Of a stretch of 64,000 nt of DNA, positions 1,591 through 13,119 are shown in pieces. Positions within the stretch are counted from its first letter, which is position 1. Every line of letters begins with the position of its first letter. Source of the DNA: Tagaea sp. (GTDB lineage Bacteria; Pseudomonadota; Alphaproteobacteria; CACIAM-22H2); assembly GCA_965228135.1 (NCBI GenBank), contig OZ245798.1, positions 1,469,220 through 1,533,219 on the forward strand, read 5' to 3'. Made by a program: the position numbers and the translations under genes. Under the pieces are notes generated by a model. It saw only the letters and a program-made list of their open reading frames with translations, searched no databases and was not told the origin of the DNA.

Positions 1591-2238
1591 TCAGCGCGCC
1601 ATAAACCCGTTGCGCATCATGCCGCGCATCGCCTCGAACAGTTTCGAGCGCTCCGACCACGCAAAGTCGGGATATGTGATGAGCAGCGAGACAAGCCCGT
1701 GGACGCTCGCCCAGATCGCCTCCGCCGTCGCGGCCGGATCGCCTTTGCGGAATATCCCCTCGTCCATCAGCCGCTTCACAAGAACCTCAAGCGCGCCGAA
1801 CGCTTGCTGGCCCTGATCGGCCGGATCGCGCGCCTTATCGGGGCGGTTGCGATGCCCCGGAACAAAAGCGGGCGCTTCGCTCATAAACAGCAAACGGTAC
1901 TCGCGCGGATGCGCGAAGCCGAATTGCATATAGACGTCGAAGAATCGCTCGAACGCATCGGACGGATTTTTGGCTTCGCGGCCCACGCGTGCGAAACCCT
2001 CGGCCAAAACGCGCATGGCGTCCTGGCAGATGGCGTGCATCAGCGTCTCTTTGTCCGCGAAATACAGATAGAGCGTCGTCGGCGTGATCCCAAGCTGCGT
2101 TGCGATACGACGCATCGTCGTGCGCGCATAGCCTTCCTTAAGGAATATGTCCTTGGCCGCGTCGAGGATCGTTTGGCGGCGTTCCGTTGCCGTCAAACGG
2201 GCGCGGCGGATCTTCTTCCTGGCGGGCTTGCGGGGCAT
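1591..2238 (-). CDS. TetR/AcrR family transcriptional regulator
   Basis: N-terminal HTH (TILDAAKDIFLKEGYARTTMRRIATQLGITPTTLYLYF) and TetR C-terminal ligand domain; divergent from an efflux operon. Confidence 0.85.
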   Translation of the reverse strand: MPRKPARKKIRRARLTATERRQTILDAAKDIFLKEGYARTTMRRIATQLGITPTTLYLYFADKETLMHAICQDAMRVLAEGFARVGREAKNPSDAFERFFDVYMQFGFAHPREYRLLFMSEAPAFVPGHRNRPDKARDPADQGQQAFGALEVLVKRLMDEGIFRKGDPAATAEAIWASVHGLVSLLITYPDFAWSERSKLFEAMRGMMRNGFMAR

Positions 2239-2288
2239 GCTTCCGGCTTACACTTTGCGGACGGGATTGGCGAGTGGCTTGACGCGAT

Positions 2289-2321
2289 ATAATAACATTG
2301 TTAACTTAACATCGTTATTAT
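2289..2321. promoter_or_regulatory. Palindromic candidate TetR operator in the TetR/efflux divergent intergenic region
   Basis: ATAATAAC-N17-GTTATTAT exact inverted arms with an internal GTTAAC palindrome, AT-rich, 18 nt upstream of the permease start. Confidence 0.4.
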
Positions 2322-2339
2322 TTTTCGACAAGGATCTTC

Positions 2340-3482
2340 ATGTCCATCTCTCCGGGCCTTCGCGACCTGCTCGCCTGGCGCAATCTTGCGCACGACAAGG
2401 TGCGGTTCCTCGTCACCTTGATCGGCATCGTCTTCTCCGTGACGCTGATGGCGGTCCAAACCGGCCTTCTCACCGGCTTCGTGACGACGATCTCGAAAAT
2501 CGTCGACAAGACCGACGCCGATTTATGGCTTGTGGGCCGCGGCGTGCGTTCGGTCGATCTGCCGGCGAACATTCCCGAACGGCGCCGCTTTCAGGTTCTC
2601 GGCGTCGACGGCGTCGCCGCCGCCGATCCTTTCATGCATGTCTTCGCGCAGATGAAGCGCCCGGATGGCGGCGCCGAAAGCGTCGCGGTCGTGGGCTTCG
2701 ATCTCGCCACCGGGCGCGGAGGCCCCTGGGGTCTGGTCGAGGGCGATATCGCCGATCTGGCCCTGCCCGACGCGGTGGTGATGGATCGGCTCTATAAGAA
2801 GAAGCTCGGTGTTGAACGTATCGGCCAAACGATCGAGGTGAACGGCCGGCGCGCGCGCGTCGTCGGTTTCACCGACGGCATTCGCACCTTCACCCAAAGC
2901 CCGCATCTGTTCGCCGACATCAAGACGGCGCGATATCTGACCGGCTACGGCGAGGATCGGCTGAACTACGTGCTGATCGAAACCGCCCGCGACGCCGATC
3001 CACAGGCCGTCGCCGCGCGCATACGCGCACTGCTGCCCGATATCGACGTCTATACCAAAGCCGAATTCTCGACGCGGTCGTCGATGTATTGGCTGGTGAC
3101 GACGGGGGCGGGCTTCTCGCTGGTCATCGCGTCGGCGCTCGGTCTTATCGTCGGCATGGTCGTGACCGCGCAAACGCTTTACGCGACGACGATGGACCGT
3201 CTGCCGGAATACGCGACGCTGCGCGCGATGGGGGCGCCGGGAAGCTATCTCTACGGCGTCATCCTGCGCCAAGCGGCGATCGCAGCGGTCTTCGGATTCG
3301 GCGCCGGTATATCCATCGCCGCGTTCATCGTCCATGGCGCGCGCGACGGATCGGCGGCTATCCTCTTGCCCTGGCAGCTCGCCGCGGGTCTGGGCTTGGC
3401 GACATTCGCGATGTGCGCGGCGGCGGCGGTGATCTCCATCCGGCGCGTCATGGCCATCGATCCCGTATCGGTGTTCAAATGA
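2340..3482 (+). CDS. ABC transporter permease, FtsX/MacB/DevC family
   Basis: N-terminal TM, large periplasmic domain, C-terminal 3-TM FtsX-like domain; stop overlaps the next start (ATGA). Confidence 0.8.
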   Translation: MSISPGLRDLLAWRNLAHDKVRFLVTLIGIVFSVTLMAVQTGLLTGFVTTISKIVDKTDADLWLVGRGVRSVDLPANIPERRRFQVLGVDGVAAADPFMHVFAQMKRPDGGAESVAVVGFDLATGRGGPWGLVEGDIADLALPDAVVMDRLYKKKLGVERIGQTIEVNGRRARVVGFTDGIRTFTQSPHLFADIKTARYLTGYGEDRLNYVLIETARDADPQAVAARIRALLPDIDVYTKAEFSTRSSMYWLVTTGAGFSLVIASALGLIVGMVVTAQTLYATTMDRLPEYATLRAMGAPGSYLYGVILRQAAIAAVFGFGAGISIAAFIVHGARDGSAAILLPWQLAAGLGLATFAMCAAAAVISIRRVMAIDPVSVFK

Positions 3483-4183
3483 CGGCACTGGTCGAAGTCG
3501 CGGACGCGCGCGTCGTCTACGGCGCGGGCGAAGCCTCAATCGAAGCGCTCAAGGGCGTCTCGCTGGAGGTGCGCAAGGGCGAGATTCTGATGCTGATGGG
3601 CCCGTCGGGCTCTGGCAAGACGACGCTGCTGCAGGTCGCGGGCGCGCTGCTGTCGCCGACCGCCGGCACCGTGCGCCTTGCCGGCGAACGGATCGACGGA
3701 ATGACGCAGGAAAATCTCGGCCGCCGGCGCCTGCGCCATTTCGGTTTCGTCTTCCAACATTACAATCTGTTCCCCGCGTTGACGGCGGCCGAGAATGTCG
3801 CGATCGCGCTCGATCTCAAAGGCGTGCCCGCCGCACGGCGCCGCGCGGCCGCCCACGAAGCGCTCGACCGCGTCGGCCTGGGCGATCGCGCGGCGCATTT
3901 CCCCTCGCAGCTCTCGGGCGGCCAAAAACAGCGCGTCGCGATCGCGCGCGCGCTGGCGGGCGAACCCGACGCGATTCTCGCCGACGAGCCGACCGCCGCA
4001 CTCGACAGCGCGTCGGGCAAGCGCGTCGTCGATCTGCTGCACGACCTCGCCAAAGCGCAAGGCCGAGCGGTGGTGCTCGTCACGCACGACCCGCGCATCG
4101 TCGAAGCTGCCGACCGCATCGTCCATATCGAAGACGGACGAATTCGCGACGCCGCCGAACAGCCCCTTCCAGCCGAGGCCTGA
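3479..4183 (+). CDS. ABC transporter ATP-binding protein (MacB/LolD-type)
   Basis: Walker A GPSGSGKTT, signature LSGGQKQR, Walker B ILADEPT, H-loop. The listed ORF 3089..4183 is an artefactual N-terminal extension; the true ATG at 3479 overlaps the upstream stop. Confidence 0.85.
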   Translation: MTALVEVADARVVYGAGEASIEALKGVSLEVRKGEILMLMGPSGSGKTTLLQVAGALLSPTAGTVRLAGERIDGMTQENLGRRRLRHFGFVFQHYNLFPALTAAENVAIALDLKGVPAARRRAAAHEALDRVGLGDRAAHFPSQLSGGQKQRVAIARALAGEPDAILADEPTAALDSASGKRVVDLLHDLAKAQGRAVVLVTHDPRIVEAADRIVHIEDGRIRDAAEQPLPAEA

Positions 4184-4184
4184 C

Positions 4185-5243
4185 ATGAACCGGAAACTCT
4201 CCCTCACTCTTGCCGTCCTCGCGATCGGTGCAGGTGCGGCGACGCTGCCGATGATCGGCGGTCCGTCGGCGCAAACGCCGTCCGCCCCGCAGACTTTCCG
4301 CGCCGCCCTTCCGGCGGGGGCGATCGCCGCGCCGGGGCGCGTCGAACCTGTGGGCGAGGAGCGCGACATCGCGGCGGAATTGCGCGGCCGGCTTGCCGCC
4401 GTTCTCGTCGACGAAGGCGACAAGGTCGAGGAAGGTCAGATCCTGGCCGAAATCGTCGACGGCGAATATCGCGCGCGCGTAATGGCGATGCGGGGATTGG
4501 TCGCTGTGCGCGAGGCCGAGCTCGCGCGCGCGTTGGCCGGTTCGCGCACGCAAGAACGCCGAGAAGCGGCCGCGATGGTACGCGAGGCGCAAGCCTCGCT
4601 CGATCAGGCCCGGATCGATCTCGCGCGGCGCGAGCCGCTCGCCGCTCAGGGGCATGTTTCCCGCGAGACGCTCGACAAAACGCGCTCCGACGTCACCGCC
4701 GCCGAGGCGCGCCTTCGCGCCAAGCGTGAGCGCGCCGATCTGCTCGATGCCGGCAGCCGCAGCGAAGATGTCGCCGTGGCGCGCGCCCTTCTCGACCAAG
4801 CGCGCGGGCAACTCGCCGAGGCCGAAGCCTTTCTTGAGAAAACGCGGGTGCGCAGCCCGATCGCGGGCGTGGTCCTGCATCGCTTCAAACGCTCGGGCGA
4901 AGGCGTTTCGGATCAGCCGCCGACGCCGATCGTCAAACTGGGGGATATCTCGGAGCTTCGGGTCCGTGTCGATGTCGACGAGACCGATGTCGGCCGTGTC
5001 GCGGTCGGTCAGCGGGCATTCGTCACCGCCGACGCTTGGTCGGGCCGACGGTTTCAGGGAACGGTCATCCGGGTGGGGCAACGCCTCGGCCGCAAGACGT
5101 TGCGCACCGACGATCCGACCGAACGGAACGATACCAAAGTCCTCGAGACCTTGGTGGCTCTGGATCCGGTCGAGATCGCCTTGCCGACCGGTCTTCGCGT
5201 CGACGCGTTCATCCTGACGGCGCCGCAGATCGCTTCCCGGTGA
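4185..5243 (+). CDS. HlyD-family periplasmic adaptor (membrane fusion protein)
   Basis: Signal/TM MNRKLSLTLAVLAIGAGAA, coiled-coil hairpin, beta-barrel and lipoyl motifs (PIAGVV...). The listed ORF 3795..5243 is an extension through the ATPase gene. Confidence 0.75.
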   Translation: MNRKLSLTLAVLAIGAGAATLPMIGGPSAQTPSAPQTFRAALPAGAIAAPGRVEPVGEERDIAAELRGRLAAVLVDEGDKVEEGQILAEIVDGEYRARVMAMRGLVAVREAELARALAGSRTQERREAAAMVREAQASLDQARIDLARREPLAAQGHVSRETLDKTRSDVTAAEARLRAKRERADLLDAGSRSEDVAVARALLDQARGQLAEAEAFLEKTRVRSPIAGVVLHRFKRSGEGVSDQPPTPIVKLGDISELRVRVDVDETDVGRVAVGQRAFVTADAWSGRRFQGTVIRVGQRLGRKTLRTDDPTERNDTKVLETLVALDPVEIALPTGLRVDAFILTAPQIASR

Positions 5244-5750
5244 GTCCGGCACGTCGAGTTTTTCGATTCGGATGTCGAAATTGCCGGACCACGTGGCCCA
5301 TCGTTACAGAATCGACATCGGGCCGCTTTCTTCCGCTTACCAAAGGAACCCGCAATTCGTTACATGATCGCGTTCCGCGAAACCGACGGACAGCTCAAGG
5401 ACCGCAACAACTTCCGGAACTCGTACGCTTATTGGGGGCTTGGGGCGCCTGCATCATTGCACTCCATGCGACGAGTCATCTCGTCAGCGGCGCCGGTCTG
5501 CAGCCGCGCTCCACCGCGACGACCGCCCGTATGCGTAACGACGAATTTATCGTTCGGGACGGCCCTTTCGACGATACCAAGGAACAGCGCACGGGATCCT
5601 TCGTGATGCCCCCCGATCCGGATGCGGCTCTTGGCCGGGCGGACTTCTCTGTCTCTCGCGTGACGGTCGGCGCGGCGGGATTCGAGTCCGAAGCGGCATC
5701 GTCATAACCGTAAAGCCGAGGCCAAGATGGAGCGCTTCGACGCCGTGACG

Positions 5751-6179
5751 TCACAACTTTGGCGGTGGAGGCGCCGACGTCGGGACCGACGCGATGTGCA
5801 TTCTATCCAGCATCGCCTGAAGGTGCGCGACGGCGGCATCCGACAGCACGAGATACGCGCGACGCCGGTCGCGCGTATCCGCCTCGCGCTGAATCACACC
5901 AAGTCGAATCAAATCATAGATACGCCTCAAAGACGTCGTCTGCGTCCCCCCCGAAGCCAGGCAAAGGCTCGACACCGAAATTCTACGCCCCCGCAGCATC
6001 GACAAATAGAGATCCAACATCATGAACCATGAGTGATCGCGAAATGCGCCGCTCGGCCAAGGTCCATTTTGAGTATCCCGCACGCTTAGCAACGCTTCGA
6101 GTTGCGAAACACGTCTAAAATTGTCCTCGACGCTCATGTCACAACCAGTTCGAATCGATCGTAAGAGATTTCCGCCCAC
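5751..6179 (-). CDS. Winged-helix (MarR-like) transcriptional regulator
   Basis: ISVSSLCLASGGTQTTSLRRIYDLIRLGVIQREADTRDRRRAYLVLSD is a typical MarR recognition-helix plus wing with DRRR. Low-GC region. Alternative start at M15 (nt 6137). Confidence 0.55.
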   Translation of the reverse strand: MGGNLLRSIRTGCDMSVEDNFRRVSQLEALLSVRDTQNGPWPSGAFRDHSWFMMLDLYLSMLRGRRISVSSLCLASGGTQTTSLRRIYDLIRLGVIQREADTRDRRRAYLVLSDAAVAHLQAMLDRMHIASVPTSAPPPPKL

Positions 6180-6188
6180 GCCTTCGAC

Positions 6189-6662
6189 TTATTGCGGGAG
6201 GGGAACGAAGATATCGGCCATCGAACTCCGTACGAGACGAACCGGGAATGATTTTTTCCCCAAGTCTTCGTCGAAGATGCGTTTGACGTCCGAAAGCGAG
6301 CGCGCTTCGACCGCGAAAATATAGAAGTCGTGAAACGCACCCCGCTCGATCTTCGGCGACTTCAAACCGTTTTCGTATGCGACATTCGCGCGATCGAAAT
6401 CCTCGAAGAACCCAAACTCGCGAGTACATATAGGAATCGAACGCATATCGCCGACATGTCCCACCGGTCTCGTCACCGTGAACTTGAAATCGCCGTCGAC
6501 AGCCTCATGCACGGCCCAGTTATCGAGATCGAAAAACCAGCCGCTCAATGAGAGGGGAATATTGGCGCCATGCCGATGCTCCAACACGTAGAACTCCCGT
6601 TTGCGGCGGAGGATCCGAACGTTAAAGCCGATCGCTTTTGTAAGCCTTACAAGAATACGCAT
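6189..6662 (-). CDS. Hypothetical protein (157 aa), no recognisable motifs
   Basis: Intact ORF in the low-GC island, 9 nt upstream of the MarR-like gene and 116 nt downstream of the FlaF-like gene (operon-like). Confidence 0.45.
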   Translation of the reverse strand: MRILVRLTKAIGFNVRILRRKREFYVLEHRHGANIPLSLSGWFFDLDNWAVHEAVDGDFKFTVTRPVGHVGDMRSIPICTREFGFFEDFDRANVAYENGLKSPKIERGAFHDFYIFAVEARSLSDVKRIFDEDLGKKSFPVRLVRSSMADIFVPLPQ

Positions 6663-6778
6663 ACGGCCCTTGCGCGGAACCCGGGGTCTTGCGGAGATGT
6701 TCTCGTGCCGCGGGATATTCGGATTGAGAACGTCGATCCGGCGATCATCGCATGACGACTTTTGGATAGATTAACGGG

Positions 6779-7162
6779 CTATCCGGATGGCGAGGCTTCC
6801 GGCTGCGGCTCCAAACTCAATCCCTCCATAACAATCCTGTTGATCGACGCCAGGAAGTCGACGTCCGTTTCCGAGTACTGCCGAATTGCGGCGTTCGATA
6901 TCCCATTGACGACGACGGCAAGCTCCGCGACCAGTTTCTTCGTCGCGGCGGGCAACCTGTTGTCCTGATGGGTCACATCCAAAGCGAACGCATTCCAAAC
7001 CTCGCGGTTGTGCTGAACCGCGTCTAAAAACGATGCGAGCGACTGCGGATCCGTGGCCCCGAACCCCTTCTTCGCCGCGATCAGCTTCTCATTCAGCCGA
7101 TCGAGAAGAAGGTATTCCCGCCTACGTGCCGGCATCGCCTCCCACTCCTCACGTCCGAACAT
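6779..7162 (-). CDS. flaF: FlaF-family protein (flagellin translation regulator homolog), orphan copy
   Basis: Matches the FlaF family pattern: RREYLLL near the N-terminus, NREVWNAFALDV...DNRLP...KKLVAELAVVV, and DVDFLASINRIVMEGL near the C-terminus. GGGAGG SD upstream of the Met at 7162; the listed ORF extends to 7222. Confidence 0.5.
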   Translation of the reverse strand: MFGREEWEAMPARRREYLLLDRLNEKLIAAKKGFGATDPQSLASFLDAVQHNREVWNAFALDVTHQDNRLPAATKKLVAELAVVVNGISNAAIRQYSETDVDFLASINRIVMEGLSLEPQPEASPSG

Positions 7163-7289
7163 CCATGTTCCTCCCGGTTTCCTTCCGAAGCTCGTTTGTA
7201 GGTGACGCCATCCGCGCCACACTTCTTCGACAACGATCGGTCTCAGCCGCGCACCAAAGCGGGGCGCATCGCCCGAAGGAGATCGACAC

Positions 7290-7560
7290 CGAAGCCAGCA
7301 ACACTTGGTTTATTATTATTTTTTCTTTACATCGTCATTTTTTTACCATCTTTTTTTAGACGACCTTCGACAGAGAGCATCGCCAAACCACTCCACCCCG
7401 CCTTATGTCAATCAACGCGGGACCGATACCATCGGTGTGCGCAAGCGAAACCAAGCCCGGATTCGTCTAAAAATTTTAAACATAATCCCGCAGACCAAAG
7501 AATACATATTCCACGCGCGAAAGAGCGTTTTCATGCAAGCGGTCCAATTCTGAGGGTCGT
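7290..7560 (-). promoter_or_regulatory. AT-rich putative promoter/5' leader region upstream of the FlaF-like operon
   Basis: Very AT-rich tract (tattattattttttctttacatcgtcatttttttaccatctttttttag) in otherwise GC-rich DNA, with no credible coding frame. Confidence 0.3.
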
Positions 7561-7698
7561 CTCGCTCGGGCGCGAAAGGCGATTCGCGATTTGGGAGCGA
7601 AAATGCATGCCAGTGATGGTGAAGCTCCAACGCACGAGATTTTTTCCGATCGATCGTCGGATCAAATCGACTGCGTGTCGGGAAGCGTTGCGCGCTCA

Positions 7699-7992
7699 TC
7701 AACGCATCTTCACCCATTCCATGTCGATCCGCGTTCGCACTGAAAGCTCTGTCCCGGTTGGCGCCGCGTGAAATCGCAAAATCTGAAAGGGCTTACGGAA
7801 AACCAATACCGCCGACGCGGAGCGAACCGCGACGATCCGACGCCAGCCGAGATACGACAACAGCTCGTCGAGTGTTCGCATGACATCCTCGACCTTGCCA
7901 TCGACCTCCAAGGTTCCGATCTCGTCCCTCCGCAGCAGGAACGACTCCAACCAGGCCGGCTGTCGGACAATCGCTTTGGAAGCTAAAGACAT
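7699..7992 (-). CDS. Hypothetical protein (97 aa)
   Basis: ORF whose start overlaps the 3' end of the 411-aa gene by 10 nt (coupled); low-GC island. Confidence 0.4.
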   Translation of the reverse strand: MSLASKAIVRQPAWLESFLLRRDEIGTLEVDGKVEDVMRTLDELLSYLGWRRIVAVRSASAVLVFRKPFQILRFHAAPTGTELSVRTRIDMEWVKMR

Positions 7993-9218
7993 TTTCCATC
8001 CGACTGGCTGTTCAAAGTCACGTTAATTCTGGTCAACATCTCTTCGAGCTCTTCAGTCGTCAAACGCTTTGCCACGGCGGCCCCCGTATAGCGCTGAAAG
8101 ATGCTTGAGCAGTGCCGTAACGCCATCGAGCAGTACCCAAGAACCCAGTAATACTTATCGACATTCCCGAGAAAATTCCGGAACGCAGCGGGCTTTCCCT
8201 CGGACATCAGCTGTCGATGGCTATCGTTGTACTTCTTGAACACTTCGATCATTTGCTGGGAAACGGTCCGTAGCTTTTCGCGGACGGAGGACTTGAACAT
8301 TCGTTGTTGCTCCAGGCGGGACCGGTCCGGCCGATCCTTGGGCTCCGATGCCGCCGAAACAAGCCAATCCAACAGCGCTTCGATGCCCGGCCGCGCTTTC
8401 TCGAAATTCACGCGATAGAAGGCAATTCCTTTCCATCCTTCGATCACCGATCTTGCGCTTGAGCTTGATATGCCCAGCGCGCCGAGAAACACCTCCGCGT
8501 CCGATTGCTCCGGATTCCAGAGCGAGTCGAGGAACGCTTCGGTTCTCTCGTTCACGAGATGGGGGGCCTCAAGCCGCAACGCTCTGGCGACGATCGGACG
8601 AAGCTTCTCCGAGATCACTTCGCGTACCGCCAATTCCTCGTCCTTAGAGATCAAGAAATACGAAGGATCGATTTCATCAAGACAGAATGACAGGGCGCCT
8701 TTCAGCAGGAATGGGTCAAGGGAAGGAATTCCATCGATCGCCTTCAATATGGCGACATCCCGCTCGTAGGCGACGCTGCTTTCCTGCAGATCGAGACCGA
8801 TATGTCGTTTCAACAGCGCCTCGAAATCGCGCTGACGCAGATAGATTCCGTATCCGCCAGAGAACAGATCGCTCGGATCGTGGGGAATATATATAGCCGT
8901 CTCTATCGGCCGCTTGGCCCCCGGTTTCTTCTGCACCGCCACCGCGGCGTTTACTTTCGAGGAACCGCGAGCTTCTTTCGCCGCATCCCAGCTGGCATCT
9001 GATATGTCTCGATCGAAATTCGGGTATTTGAATATCACCGTGTGATTGAGAAAGGTGCATCGGAATATCTTCGCGGCGGCGGGAACGTCGTTTGATTTGA
9101 TCAAATTCAACGCAACCGACGCGCCGCCGTTGCATATCTGATCGAGAAGCGGCGACACAAAACGTCTCGCCTTAGCGCCGCTTGCCCCCCCTGTCTGGCT
9201 CACTTCATTCGGCGACAT
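7983..9218 (-). CDS. Hypothetical protein (411 aa), no recognisable catalytic motifs
   Basis: Long uninterrupted ORF in the low-GC island with protein-like composition, downstream of the receiver-domain gene. Confidence 0.5.
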   Translation of the reverse strand: MSPNEVSQTGGASGAKARRFVSPLLDQICNGGASVALNLIKSNDVPAAAKIFRCTFLNHTVIFKYPNFDRDISDASWDAAKEARGSSKVNAAVAVQKKPGAKRPIETAIYIPHDPSDLFSGGYGIYLRQRDFEALLKRHIGLDLQESSVAYERDVAILKAIDGIPSLDPFLLKGALSFCLDEIDPSYFLISKDEELAVREVISEKLRPIVARALRLEAPHLVNERTEAFLDSLWNPEQSDAEVFLGALGISSSSARSVIEGWKGIAFYRVNFEKARPGIEALLDWLVSAASEPKDRPDRSRLEQQRMFKSSVREKLRTVSQQMIEVFKKYNDSHRQLMSEGKPAAFRNFLGNVDKYYWVLGYCSMALRHCSSIFQRYTGAAVAKRLTTEELEEMLTRINVTLNSQSDGKCL

Positions 9219-9334: not shown

Positions 9335-9766
9335 TTATCGGACTGGCTGCGTTTCTTTTAGAATTGCGTTCAGCTGCTGCGCCGATGGCGGCTTCGCAAG
9401 CACGGACACTAGATCGACACCGGATAACCGTTTTTTTACGTCGTCCAGTTCTTTGGAAAGACAGAATACAAAAAATGGTGTGTTCTGAAGGCGCGGAACG
9501 AAGCGAGATAACGCAACGAGCTGGGCCCCCGTAAAGTATCGAAGTGCCTGATCCAATATTATTGCCGAGAACCGGCTCATGGTTATCAATTCGAATGCTT
9601 GGAAGCCATCTATTGCCAGTTCACAGTCATAACCCTGCTTAGCCAGAACTGATTCACACCTCGAACGCATCAAGTCGCATTTGGAACCGATCAAAAATCG
9701 GCGATCCACTTCAGTGTGAGTTGCGTCCGTTGTTTTTCCGAATCGCACTACCGCTTCTCCGTCCAT
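9335..9766 (-). CDS. Stand-alone receiver (REC/CheY-like) domain protein, atypical
   Basis: Beta-alpha pattern with phosphoacceptor Asp (AIILDQ), conserved Ser (VFCLSKE) and Lys-Pro (LAKPP). The N-terminal acidic pair is replaced (LIGSKCD). Has a 21-aa N-terminal extension. Confidence 0.5.
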   Translation of the reverse strand: MDGEAVVRFGKTTDATHTEVDRRFLIGSKCDLMRSRCESVLAKQGYDCELAIDGFQAFELITMSRFSAIILDQALRYFTGAQLVALSRFVPRLQNTPFFVFCLSKELDDVKKRLSGVDLVSVLAKPPSAQQLNAILKETQPVR

Positions 9767-10342
9767 CGCGTCGAAGCGGTTTGTACGCGCCGGCCTTCTG
9801 CCAGATCAGTTCAAATGTCGGAATTGCACCATCAGGGCAGATGATCTGCGGGATTCAGTATCAAAACTTAGTTCAATATCGACGAACAATTCGATCGCCT
9901 CGCAAATAACGTCGCATTTTTCAATTCATCGCCGGTCGTCGGAACGCGCGGCGCGATATGATTGTGTTGTTGTCGGACGTCTTGTCGGTCTGGCTTCGCG
10001 CCATCGGCATCGAGGGACCGCCGGCGATGAAGATACCAAAGTCTCCGGCAATTGCTTGCTCATCAAAGGACTGAAGACGATCGAACGATTGATCCAAGCC
10101 AAGTACTCCCCTGACGTCGCCATTCGGCCCTTCAGTTTGGATTGAATCTTTTTCATTCGAGACCGACGGCAGCTCATTCTTACGTTCGACGGCCTCGGCA
10201 ATCCGAGTAGCGGAGTAATAAGAGATCGTGCGCCTATTTGATGGATACAATTCTTCGCAGCGCTCATCAGTTACGCTTCAGCCAATTGGCATGAACTTAA
10301 AATGTTGCGATTTGGTAGGCTTCGTCTCTCGTGGAGAACAGA

Positions 10343-12604
10343 ATGTCTGGGCTGCTTTCGCGTCTACGTATTTCGCTCCAAGTATCGCTTATCGGTATCG
10401 TCGGAGTACTGGGTCTGGTCGCGGTCGGCGCGATCTATTTCGTGGGAAGCGCCAATCAGCAACGTACGCAAGCCTTCGCCGATCGGCAGGGCGCCCTCGA
10501 CGATCGGCTGAAAGCCCTCGACATCGACCTGTTGCAGACACGCCGCCACGAGAAGGACTTTTTGCTCCGGCGCGAGGAGACTTACGTCGCGCGTCACGCC
10601 GCCGCCCAGCAAGCGGCGGCCAAGAATCTCGCCGCGATCCTGTCGGGCGCAAGTGACGCCGAACTTCGCGCGGACGCCCAGAAGGTGCAAGCGGGCCTTG
10701 ATCTGTACCGCCAGCAATTCGCCACCGTCGTCGCCGAGCAGACGAAACTCGGCTTGAACGAGAGTTCCGGCCTGCAAGGCACGCTGCGCCGATCGGTGCA
10801 GGCGGTCGAAGCCGCACTCGCGCGCCACGACTTGCCGCGCCTGGCGGTCACGATGCTGATGATGCGCCGGCACGAGAAGGACTACATCCTCCGCGGCGCA
10901 GCAAGCTACGGCGAAGATATGAAGAAACGCGCGGCCGAGTTCGCGGCCGCCTTGCCCGCCGCCAATCTGCCAGCCGCCGAACGCGACCAAATCGTCCAGC
11001 TGATGGACGCCTACCACCGCGATTTCGCGGAATTCATGTCGACCGATCAGAAACTCCGTGCCGACATACGCAAATTGTCGGAGGCCTACGCGGCGCTCGA
11101 ACCCGAACTCGATCGGATGGCAAAGCGTATCGTTTCGGCGCAGGAAGTCGCGCTCGCCGAGCTCGCCGCAAATCGCGAAGCGACGGCAGCGACGCTCGGG
11201 ACGACGATCGCGATCGTGACGCTGCTCGTCGCACTGCTCGCCTTCGTCATCAGCCGCGGCATCGTCCGGCCGGTGACGTCGCTGACCGGCACGATGGCGC
11301 GCCTCGCCGCCGGCGATCTCGATGTCGCGATCGACGGTGCCGCGCGCAAGGACGAGTTGGGCGCTATGGCGCGCTCGGTCGAGGTCTTCAAGGAAAACGC
11401 GATGGAAGCGCGCCGACTGCGCGCCGAGCAAGCGCGCGCGGCCGAAGAAGCCGAACGGCAGAAGAAACAGGCGCTGATGGATATGGCCGACACGGTCGAA
11501 CGCGAGACCGCCAACGCGCTCGCCGCGATTGCGAAGAATACGCTCCAGGTCAATGGCGCAGCCGAAAGCATGTCGAGTCTGGCGCAAGAAGTGACGATGG
11601 ATTCGCAGGCCGTAGCCGCCGCCTCGGAAGAGGCGCTGGTGAACGTGCAAACAGTCTCTTCGGCGGCCGAGGAACTTTCCGCCTCTATTCGTGAAATTGC
11701 GACGCAAGTGGCGCGCGCCTCCAGCGTGACGAAGGGCGCCGTCGAAAGCGGCGAAAAAGCGCGCACGACGATCGGTTCGCTGTCCGAGGCGGTTGCGCGC
11801 ATCTCGGAGGTCGCTAAGTTGATCGGTCAGATCGCCGGACAAACGAATTTGCTGGCGCTCAACGCCACGATCGAAGCCGCACGTGCGGGCGAAGCCGGCA
11901 AGGGATTCGCGGTGGTCGCTTCGGAGGTGAAAAACCTCGCCACGCAGACGGGCCGCTCGACAGAAGATATCGACCGCCAAGTTGCGGAAATCCGCACCGC
12001 GACGGATGCCTCCGTGGCAGCCGTTAGCGAGATCGGCGATCGCATCCGCGAAATCGATTCCGTCGCTACGGCGATCGCCTCGGCGATGGAGGAGCAAGGT
12101 GCGGCGACACAGGAGATTGCGAGAAACGTGGGCCAGACGGCGGACGCTGCGCGCGAGGTCTCCTCGAAGATCCAGAATGTCAGCCGGGAGGCGGATAACG
12201 TAGGCGCACGCGCGAGCGAGGTACGCGGCGCGATCGGAGGCGTCGGCAGAAGCCTGGAAGAGTTGAAGCGTATTCTCGTGCGGGTCGTGCGCACCTCCAC
12301 CGCCGACGCCGACCGGCGCAAGCACGTACGCCATCCGGTCTCGGCGAAGATCGATGTCTCCGACGGCGCCGGCAAAAGAATCGATGCGGTGCTCGTCGAC
12401 GTATCGCTTGGCGGCGCCCATTTCCGCACAGCGTCGACGCTCAAGCGCGACGAGCGCGGCACGATCCGATTCGACGGATTGGCTTCGCCGATCGCCTTTG
12501 TCGTGCGCCTGCGCGAGGCCGACGGGGCGGTACATGTCGAGTTCCCGGCGGGTGCCGCGGGCGAGGATTTCGGCGCTTGGCTTAGCCAGCGCAGTGCGGC
12601 CTAG
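10343..12604 (+). CDS. Methyl-accepting chemotaxis protein with C-terminal PilZ (c-di-GMP-binding) domain, Tlp1-like
   Basis: TM1, periplasmic region with duplicated RRHEKD(F/Y)(L/I)LR motif, TM2, HAMP, MCP signalling domain, then C-terminal RRKHVR...DVSLGGA PilZ motifs. ATG at 10343 preceded by a GGAG SD; the listed GTG at 10331 is in frame. Confidence 0.85.
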
Positions 12605-13119
12605 CTGATAACGCGCTCTCTCGCGGTCAGGCATCCGCTTCGTGTCCGTCACATTGCGCGATGCTGACGGCCGCCCCGCCCGTTTCGACGATGCAAATCT
12701 CGACAGCCGTGAGGTCCTCTGCCGGAGTGGCAAGTGCAAGTGGCCGAGCCTACGTCTTCTCTAAATCATTACGTATTTGCAGTCCGGAACCTAAACGGCG
12801 TCGGCTTTGCTTCGATCGGCAAGCGATCCGAGGGGCCCTCAGTCCCCCAGACCGTAAAAAACTCTGCTATTTCAATATTGTTTTCCGCATTATCGAGGCA
12901 TTTCGAGGCCTTTTGTGGAAAATGAAAACGCCTGATTCTCTATACTTGTCGATCGACATCCAGACGCCTCTCTCGTATGCGCAAGGCGCAAACAACTAGG
13001 CAGGCATCAGTCCGCATGAGTCTCACTCCTCATTTTGTGAGTTCAAAGCCCCTACGGCACGCCAAAGGCAGCTGATCGAAGGTGGGTGCGCTCCTCGCAA
13101 CGCCGTTTCTCAGCTGGAT

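Follow-up and report, generated by a model that had tools for sequence, protein, structure and literature searches.

A FlaF-like gene is located at positions 6779-7162, on the minus strand, of a 64-kb stretch of DNA from Tagaea sp. (contig OZ245798.1, positions 1,469,220 to 1,533,219), which was analysed as a whole and is hereafter called the window. The open reading frame (ORF) codes for 127 amino acids (aa) and starts with an ATG preceded, 7 nucleotides (nt) upstream, by the Shine-Dalgarno sequence GGGAGG. The preliminary description of this DNA had the gene sitting alone; instead, it occupies fourth place in a conserved cassette of six genes with the order (receiver-like) - 411 aa - 97 aa - ~530-nt gap - FlaF-like - 157 aa - MarR-like, which is kept in at least 12 other contigs (Table 1). 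Contigs used for comparison are referred to by numbers preceded by L.

The 127-aa product matches the Pfam profile of FlaF (PF07309) with 58.8 bits (E=6.6e-16; gathering cutoff 23.6), and its residues 9-115 align with positions 12-113 of the 113 in the profile. In an alignment of 47 FlaF sequences, which includes the window protein itself, all of the family-invariant residues (R13, E16, N52, W56, N68, V85, N108 and L115) are kept, as are eight further positions that are at least 90% conserved. Judged by its sequence, the ORF encodes a genuine FlaF-family protein, as had been proposed; since it scores above the Pfam cutoff and below both NCBIfam equivalog cutoffs, it is a true but divergent member. 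The close homologues found among 5.8 billion proteins amount to a handful, and the motifs of the FlaF subclade had no matches in species-representative genomes. Residues 5-83 also gave weak matches to the C-terminal part of PglX (DUF7008), the methyltransferase of BREX, with E values in the range of 0.002-0.08 (Pfam 0.011, PADLOC 0.0019 and NCBIfam 0.077) and scores far under the cutoffs; this relation was rejected as probable helical-bundle noise.

The five core genes of the cassette, from the 411-aa gene to the MarR-like gene and with the receiver gene excluded, have ratios of non-synonymous to synonymous substitution (dN/dS) of 0.05-0.18 at dS values of ~0.7-2. These low ratios identify the core genes as real and under constraint by purifying selection. 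Nucleotide homology between the window and contig L094 extends exactly from 9218 to 5737.

Flagellar genes were searched for in the window in two ways. Pfam scans of its ~55 ORFs found transporters, catabolic enzymes, regulators and one chemoreceptor, and a tblastn search with flagellin, FlbT, FliG, MotA, MotB and DUF1217 sequences from canonical loci returned the FlaF-like ORF as the sole match; FlbT gave nothing in this search, and none of the ORFs neighbouring the FlaF-like gene matches the FlbT family (PF07378). As neither search found a flagellar gene besides the FlaF-like one, the statement that no flagellar genes occur in the 64 kb holds, and so does the orphan status ascribed to the gene. 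The foreign composition noted earlier is also evident: the gene lies in a low-GC stretch at ~5.7-10.3 kb with a GC content of 0.50-0.55, compared with 0.63 for the window and 0.64 at 11-64 kb.

Table 1. Features of the cassette, the upstream gap and the flanks in the window; identity is that of the amino-acid sequence to contig L104
Feature	Coordinates	Strand	Identity to L104	Remarks
Degenerate receiver-domain protein, 143 aa	9335..9766	-	65%	Response_reg 31.5 bits; optional first cassette gene
411-aa protein of unknown function	7983..9218	-	84%	Starts the conserved core; L094 homology begins at 9218; dN/dS 0.05-0.07
97-aa protein of unknown function	7699..7992	-	89%	10-nt overlap with end of the 411-aa gene; dN/dS 0.09-0.18
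Non-coding gap, presumed promoter/operator and 5' untranslated region (UTR)	7163..7698	-		536 nt, mean GC 0.52
Strongest conserved block, CGGGATTAT-GTTTAAAATTTTTAGAC-GAATCCG	7458..7490	-		Nearly invariant in all alleles covering that part
A-rich tract, coding strand	7313..7362	-		GC 0.22; 150-200 nt upstream of the ATG
FlaF-like gene	6779..7162	-	90%	127 aa, isoelectric point (pI) 5.2; divergent FlaF-family member, predicted FliS-like four-helix bundle
157-aa basic ORFan	6189..6662	-	73%	pI 9.2; dN/dS 0.06-0.12; found only beside this FlaF-like subclade
MarR-like winged-helix regulator	5751..6179	-	78%	142 aa from GTG, or 128 aa from ATG at 6137; dN/dS 0.07-0.18
Divergent-allele segment	5751..9750	.		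59-86% nucleotide identity to L104; flanks 1751-4500 and 9751-12750 at 96-99%
HlyD	flank		97%
MacB	flank		99.5%
TetR	flank		98%

Relatives of the FlaF-like protein

A neighbour-joining tree was built from 123 FlaF sequences with 200 bootstraps; the search method biases its outgroup sample to Azospirillum-like sequences. The window protein and ten relatives form one clade in this tree, recovered in 200 of the 200 replicates. Among the canonical FlaFs retrieved, none exceeds 39% identity to a member of the clade, the highest value for the window protein being 35%. The cassette-type copies are sister, with a bootstrap of 196/200, to a subclade of 60-65% identity (L006-L008, L013 and L107), whose genes are located directly downstream of ORFs matching the Flagellin_C family (PF00700, E~2e-9). 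This position argues for a retained flagellin-related role. The FlaF gene of the sister subclade is not followed by FlbT, the next conserved genes being PhyH-PdxA-PdxJ. The stretch between FlaF and these genes varies and contains RES-Xre toxin-antitoxin (TA) genes in L006, a 158-aa ORF in L013, and HD and protoglobin genes in L107. All contigs of this subclade break off within the flagellin gene that directly precedes the FlaF-like gene, which suggests that tandem or repeated flagellin genes break the assemblies.

In a third subclade, at 52% identity (L009), the FlaF-like operon is divergent from genes for a histidine kinase and a REC-MarR_2 response regulator, and the DNA-binding domain of the latter is 60% identical to the MarR-like protein of the window. 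Since it is present at this distance, the pairing of this type of FlaF with this winged helix-turn-helix (wHTH) domain predates the one with the 157-aa ORFan.

Each of the seven canonical FlaF loci examined is flagellar. In six, flagellin and FlbT are neighbours of FlaF, FlbT adjoining it in L012, L100, L102, L108, L109 and L110, and the seventh lies beside motAB. The L110 locus contains two FlaF genes (5001-5351 and 6597-6941) in the order flagellin-FlbT-FlaF, then flagellin-FlaF-FlaG; the second of these means that FlbT-less flagellin-FlaF units exist inside ordinary flagellar clusters.

The window protein resembles the canonical FlaF proteins of Caulobacter, Brucella, Azospirillum and other Alphaproteobacteria in its near full-length Pfam match, in its size and acidity, and in the shared R13, E16, 'NRE-W' motif (N52/W56), N68-L-P motif, N108 and L115; its sister subclade is likewise encoded right after flagellin. 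However, its N-terminus is ~11 residues shorter, it carries two small clade-specific insertions, and its gene has no adjacent flbT or flagellin and stands in a cassette of unknown proteins. The absence of FlbT beside the gene is common to the window copy and to the FlbT-less flagellin-FlaF units, namely those of the sister subclade and the second FlaF of L110. The sister-subclade units also belong to the same FlaF subfamily and have the clade-specific insertions in common with the window protein. In these units flagellin lies directly upstream, whereas the window copy has the 97-aa gene and the 536-nt gap in that place and has gained the 157-aa and MarR-like partners. The locus defines a well-supported, long-branch FlaF subfamily comprising flagellin-linked copies and cassette-borne orphan copies, and thereby allows the divergence of a flagellin chaperone to be followed in nature once it is uncoupled from its substrate gene.

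Predicted fold and possible clients

In most other flagellated bacteria, the export chaperone of flagellin is FliS. The AlphaFold 2 (AF2) model of the FlaF-like protein, with a predicted local distance difference test (pLDDT) score of 89.9, is a four-helix bundle, and the protein is predicted to adopt the same bundle as FliS. Identity to FliS (PDB 5xef, 3iqc, 1orj and 6ch3) in the structural alignment is 7-12%; the likeness stems from the predicted model, and the sequence profile of the FlaF-like protein gave no match to FliS or any other PDB entry. To our knowledge, FlaF is without a solved structure and among the least understood of the flagellar proteins. Its described role has shifted from 'regulator' to 'secretion chaperone'. 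In the work on Caulobacter, from which the function of the protein is known, FlaF is presented as a secretion chaperone that binds flagellin (PMC7591256), and a chaperone reading of the FlaF-like protein agrees with this current model.

The interpretation that we tentatively prefer, although we give it somewhat less than an even chance, is that the gene encodes a paralog of this protein-binding chaperone with a flagellin-type client encoded elsewhere. As a small acidic chaperone or adaptor, the FlaF-like protein would act in trans, gripping the helical C-terminal segment of a flagellin-type client whose gene would be situated elsewhere in the genome, and would not operate by binding RNA. A promoter in the 536-nt gap would drive the co-transcription of the FlaF-like, 157-aa and MarR-like genes, and the MarR-like protein may autoregulate this promoter through a conserved 17-bp palindrome. 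These three genes had been described as one operon; their co-linear order on the same strand is confirmed, while their co-transcription is presumed. The finding will have little practical consequence before the client of the chaperone is established.

Several points weigh against a flagellin-type client acted on in trans. The Pfam scans of the ~55 ORFs of the window detected no gene for flagellin, FlbT, Fli, Flg or Mot proteins, and such action would be atypical because all seven canonical FlaF loci are flagellar. The stem of the clade is the longest internal branch of the tree (0.79, compared with a median of 0.03), and the NCBIfam FlaF equivalogs were not reached (59.5 bits against a cutoff of 91 for NF009435, and 32.4 against 99 for NF009434); the long stem branch and the sub-equivalog scores of the window protein would fit a change of function. 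The fold is a prediction at the level of the family, and four-helix bundles are common. Finally, a self-contained function is hinted at by the tight conserved link to the ORFan and to two further unknown proteins.

In a second explanation, the FliS-fold protein was co-opted in the cassette and binds a cassette partner, the 157-aa ORFan or the MarR-like protein, and not flagellin. The basic ORFan could be the cognate substrate, perhaps exported via the flagellar type III apparatus. An acidic small chaperone beside its substrate gene is the usual type III chaperone-substrate layout, and the acidic FlaF-like protein (pI 5.2) adjoins the basic 157-aa protein (pI 9.2), although a gap of 116 nt separates their genes. 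Alternatively, the chaperone could be an anti-regulator of the MarR-like protein, in the way that FliT acts on FlhDC; the link between FlaF-like proteins and a wHTH domain persists at 52% identity. Co-option is also consistent with the FlaF/157/MarR trio being invariant in every allele of the subclade, with the 157-aa protein existing only with this FlaF subclade, with the evolution and exchange of the cassette as a unit, and with the long stem branch and the scores under the equivalog cutoffs. However, all family-invariant residues are kept, the sister subclade is linked to flagellin, and the sister subclades lack the 157-aa partner. We consider co-option doubtful overall. A more specific version, in which a FliS-fold chaperone captured by an allele-diverse six-gene cassette pilots the 157-aa ORFan through the flagellar export gate or titrates the MarR-like regulator, seems less probable again; if true, a flagellar chaperone would have become the centre of a new strain-specific module, for secretion or for regulation, with deeply divergent alleles at one chromosomal site.

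The upstream gap and the RNA-binding hypothesis

The preliminary description proposed an RNA-binding regulator preceded by an extremely AT-rich leader of more than 250 nt and co-opted for another target. The leader was overstated: within the 536-nt gap AT-rich patches are limited to two of ~50 nt each, one being the A-rich tract of Table 1 and the other at 7463-7512 (GC 0.32). The composition of the A-rich tract is conserved between alleles, and its sequence is not. The gap has no Rfam match at E<=1, and its predicted single-sequence fold is no better than that of shuffled sequences (minimum free energy z=0.29). Over the alleles, no consensus RNA structure was obtained (RNAalifold -7.6 kcal/mol, with a covariation term of -0.14).

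The gap contains sequence blocks that are conserved over ten aligned alleles even though dS is ~1, a value at which synonymous sites are near saturation. The strongest of them includes a near-palindrome of 17 bp at 7465-7481, read from the sequence and located ~300 nt upstream of the FlaF-like ATG, which resembles the operator of a dimeric winged-helix regulator and is a candidate operator for the MarR-like protein. Near the FlaF-like gene of L009 this palindrome is absent and another one, GTTCATTTTGAAC, occurs. The gap showed no sigma-70 consensus; by eye, the spacing for sigma-54 is wrong, and neither a complete CtrA box nor a FliA motif is seen. A 24-nt inverted repeat (7474-7497/9842-9865, 79% complementary), which might have been a further copy of the leader motif in front of the receiver gene, was rejected, as it is not conserved in other alleles and is probably due to chance.

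A post-transcriptional regulator that binds its own leader or another mRNA is the least probable of the functions considered here. The idea draws on older genetics, in which both FlaF and FlbT were placed in flagellin translational control (cited in PMC7591256, PMC2446400), and on the presence of the long gap, with its conserved blocks and A-rich tract, upstream of the gene. However, binding to RNA and to the 5' UTR is now assigned to FlbT rather than to FlaF, which is regarded as the secretion chaperone (PMC7591256), and the window encodes no FlbT or FlbT-like protein. The fold predicted for the FlaF-like protein is that of FliS, the leader appears unstructured, lacking an Rfam match and covariation, and its best-conserved block is a palindrome of DNA type far upstream of the ATG. 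The premise of the earlier proposal is therefore not upheld, and the cassette context leaves room for its other part, co-option for another target.

Cassette proteins, allelic exchange and genomic surroundings

The 143-aa receiver protein keeps the equivalents of CheY D57, the phospho-acceptor aspartate, and K109, and has lost the D12/D13 acidic pair and T87, so that it is probably a pseudo-receiver. Its gene occurs in L001, L004 and L104-L106 and is missing from L094 and L103. The 411-aa, 97-aa and 157-aa proteins have no family matches in Pfam, NCBIfam, PADLOC or PHROG. The 97-aa protein is 80-93% identical between alleles. An exhaustive phmmer search of 1.84 billion representative proteins placed the 157-aa protein in a single cluster at 50% identity, its own, and the AF2 model of this protein (pLDDT 37) is unusable. 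The possibility that the 411-aa family is a disguised flagellin was dismissed, since no similarity to flagellin was found in the comparison, as was the possibility that the 157-aa and 97-aa families are disguised FlbT proteins (hhalign probability against FlbT <=0.2%).

The MarR-like gene begins 9 nt past the stop codon of the 157-aa gene. Its product has weak matches to HTH_27 (17.4 bits against a cutoff of 22.2, E=0.005) and, in the PDB, to the MarR-family protein HucR (E=3e-4); the MprA and MsvR equivalogs score far below their cutoffs. The homologue in L009 reaches 23.2 bits against MarR_2, for which the cutoff is 27.

In most of the other alleles the MarR-like gene is followed, on the same strand, by a gene for a large RTX (HemolysinCabind) repeat protein (L094 11544-15512, L003 4255-7536, L001 11711-12469 and L105 ~5700-6515). 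The RTX gene is missing in the window and in L104, where an HlyD/ABC/MacB efflux operon abuts the cassette. No integrase, tRNA, phage link or other mobility gene was found for the cassette. Relatives of the FlaF-like protein were not found in viral contigs, and the plasmid and chromid matches are to canonical FlaFs only.

Contig L104 (JAESFZ010000033.1, 620 kb) contains the same genes in the same order as the window. Between near-identical flanks, the cassette genes of the two contigs differ markedly (Table 1), an identity of 88-96% being found over 4500-5750, at the 3' end of the HlyD-like gene; this gradient marks a probable recombination breakpoint zone. In view of the low dN/dS values, old alleles that recombination exchanges at a fixed site are the indicated explanation, and not rapid adaptive change. 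One chromosomal site in a freshwater alphaproteobacterial lineage holds the cassette, which is swapped there as a divergent allele. A cassette that is ~25% divergent in a background of 98-99% identity, yet is under strong purifying selection, is typical of loci at which old alleles are kept and exchanged, such as those for surface antigens and for recognition or immunity systems. The cassette may thus have an ecological role beyond motility.

The divergence of the whole cassette between near-identical strains, as at loci under frequency-dependent selection, would also fit a toxin-antitoxin-like or anti-phage module in which the FlaF-like protein is the acidic neutraliser and the 157-aa protein the effector. 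Small adjacent genes of opposite charge with a regulator, the low-GC island in which the cassette lies, and the RES-Xre, Mrr_cat and NTP_transf_8 genes beside the sister locus in L006 agree with such a module. However, none of the six proteins has a significant PADLOC match (the best, to PglX, has E=0.0019 and 13.9 bits), the PHROG matches are weak and to unnamed families, and no TA families of Pfam are represented among the cassette proteins. The lack of relatives in viral contigs or, besides canonical FlaFs, on plasmids, and of integrase, tRNA or other mobility genes, also counts against it. The defence-type neighbours in L006 belong to a variable insert between FlaF and PhyH-PdxAJ that is absent from L013 and L107. 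Such a module is very unlikely.

The gene divergent from the cassette receiver gene (10331-12604, plus strand) encodes a chemoreceptor of the methyl-accepting chemotaxis protein (MCP) type with HAMP and C-terminal PilZ domains, a putative cyclic di-GMP-binding MCP. The nearest relative found for it, with 57% identity, is encoded by a metagenome-assembled genome of Tagaea sp. (Rhodospirillales). Such an MCP-PilZ chemoreceptor next to the cassette makes a motile host likely.

Positions 12836-13030 of the window hold, in minus orientation, a ~190-nt non-coding element that is conserved and ends in ACGGTCTGGGGGACTGGG. Copies occur in L001 (6859-7052 and 12642-12832), L003 (7742-7904), L105 (6684-6879) and L107 (~6732-6757). 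The two copies of L001 are direct and bracket the whole cassette together with the RTX gene, and the synteny between the window and L104 breaks at 12967, inside the element. No Rfam family matches it, and neither a tRNA nor a tmRNA was predicted there; perhaps it is a dispersed repeat specific to the lineage or a site of recombination.

A second low-GC segment (GC 0.47-0.54) occupies positions 1-1600 of the window and contains a truncated gene for a SMC_N/AAA_21 (AbiEii-like) ATPase. Homology to L104 ends at 1597, which makes this segment a separate strain-specific insertion beside the TetR-MacB-HlyD genes.

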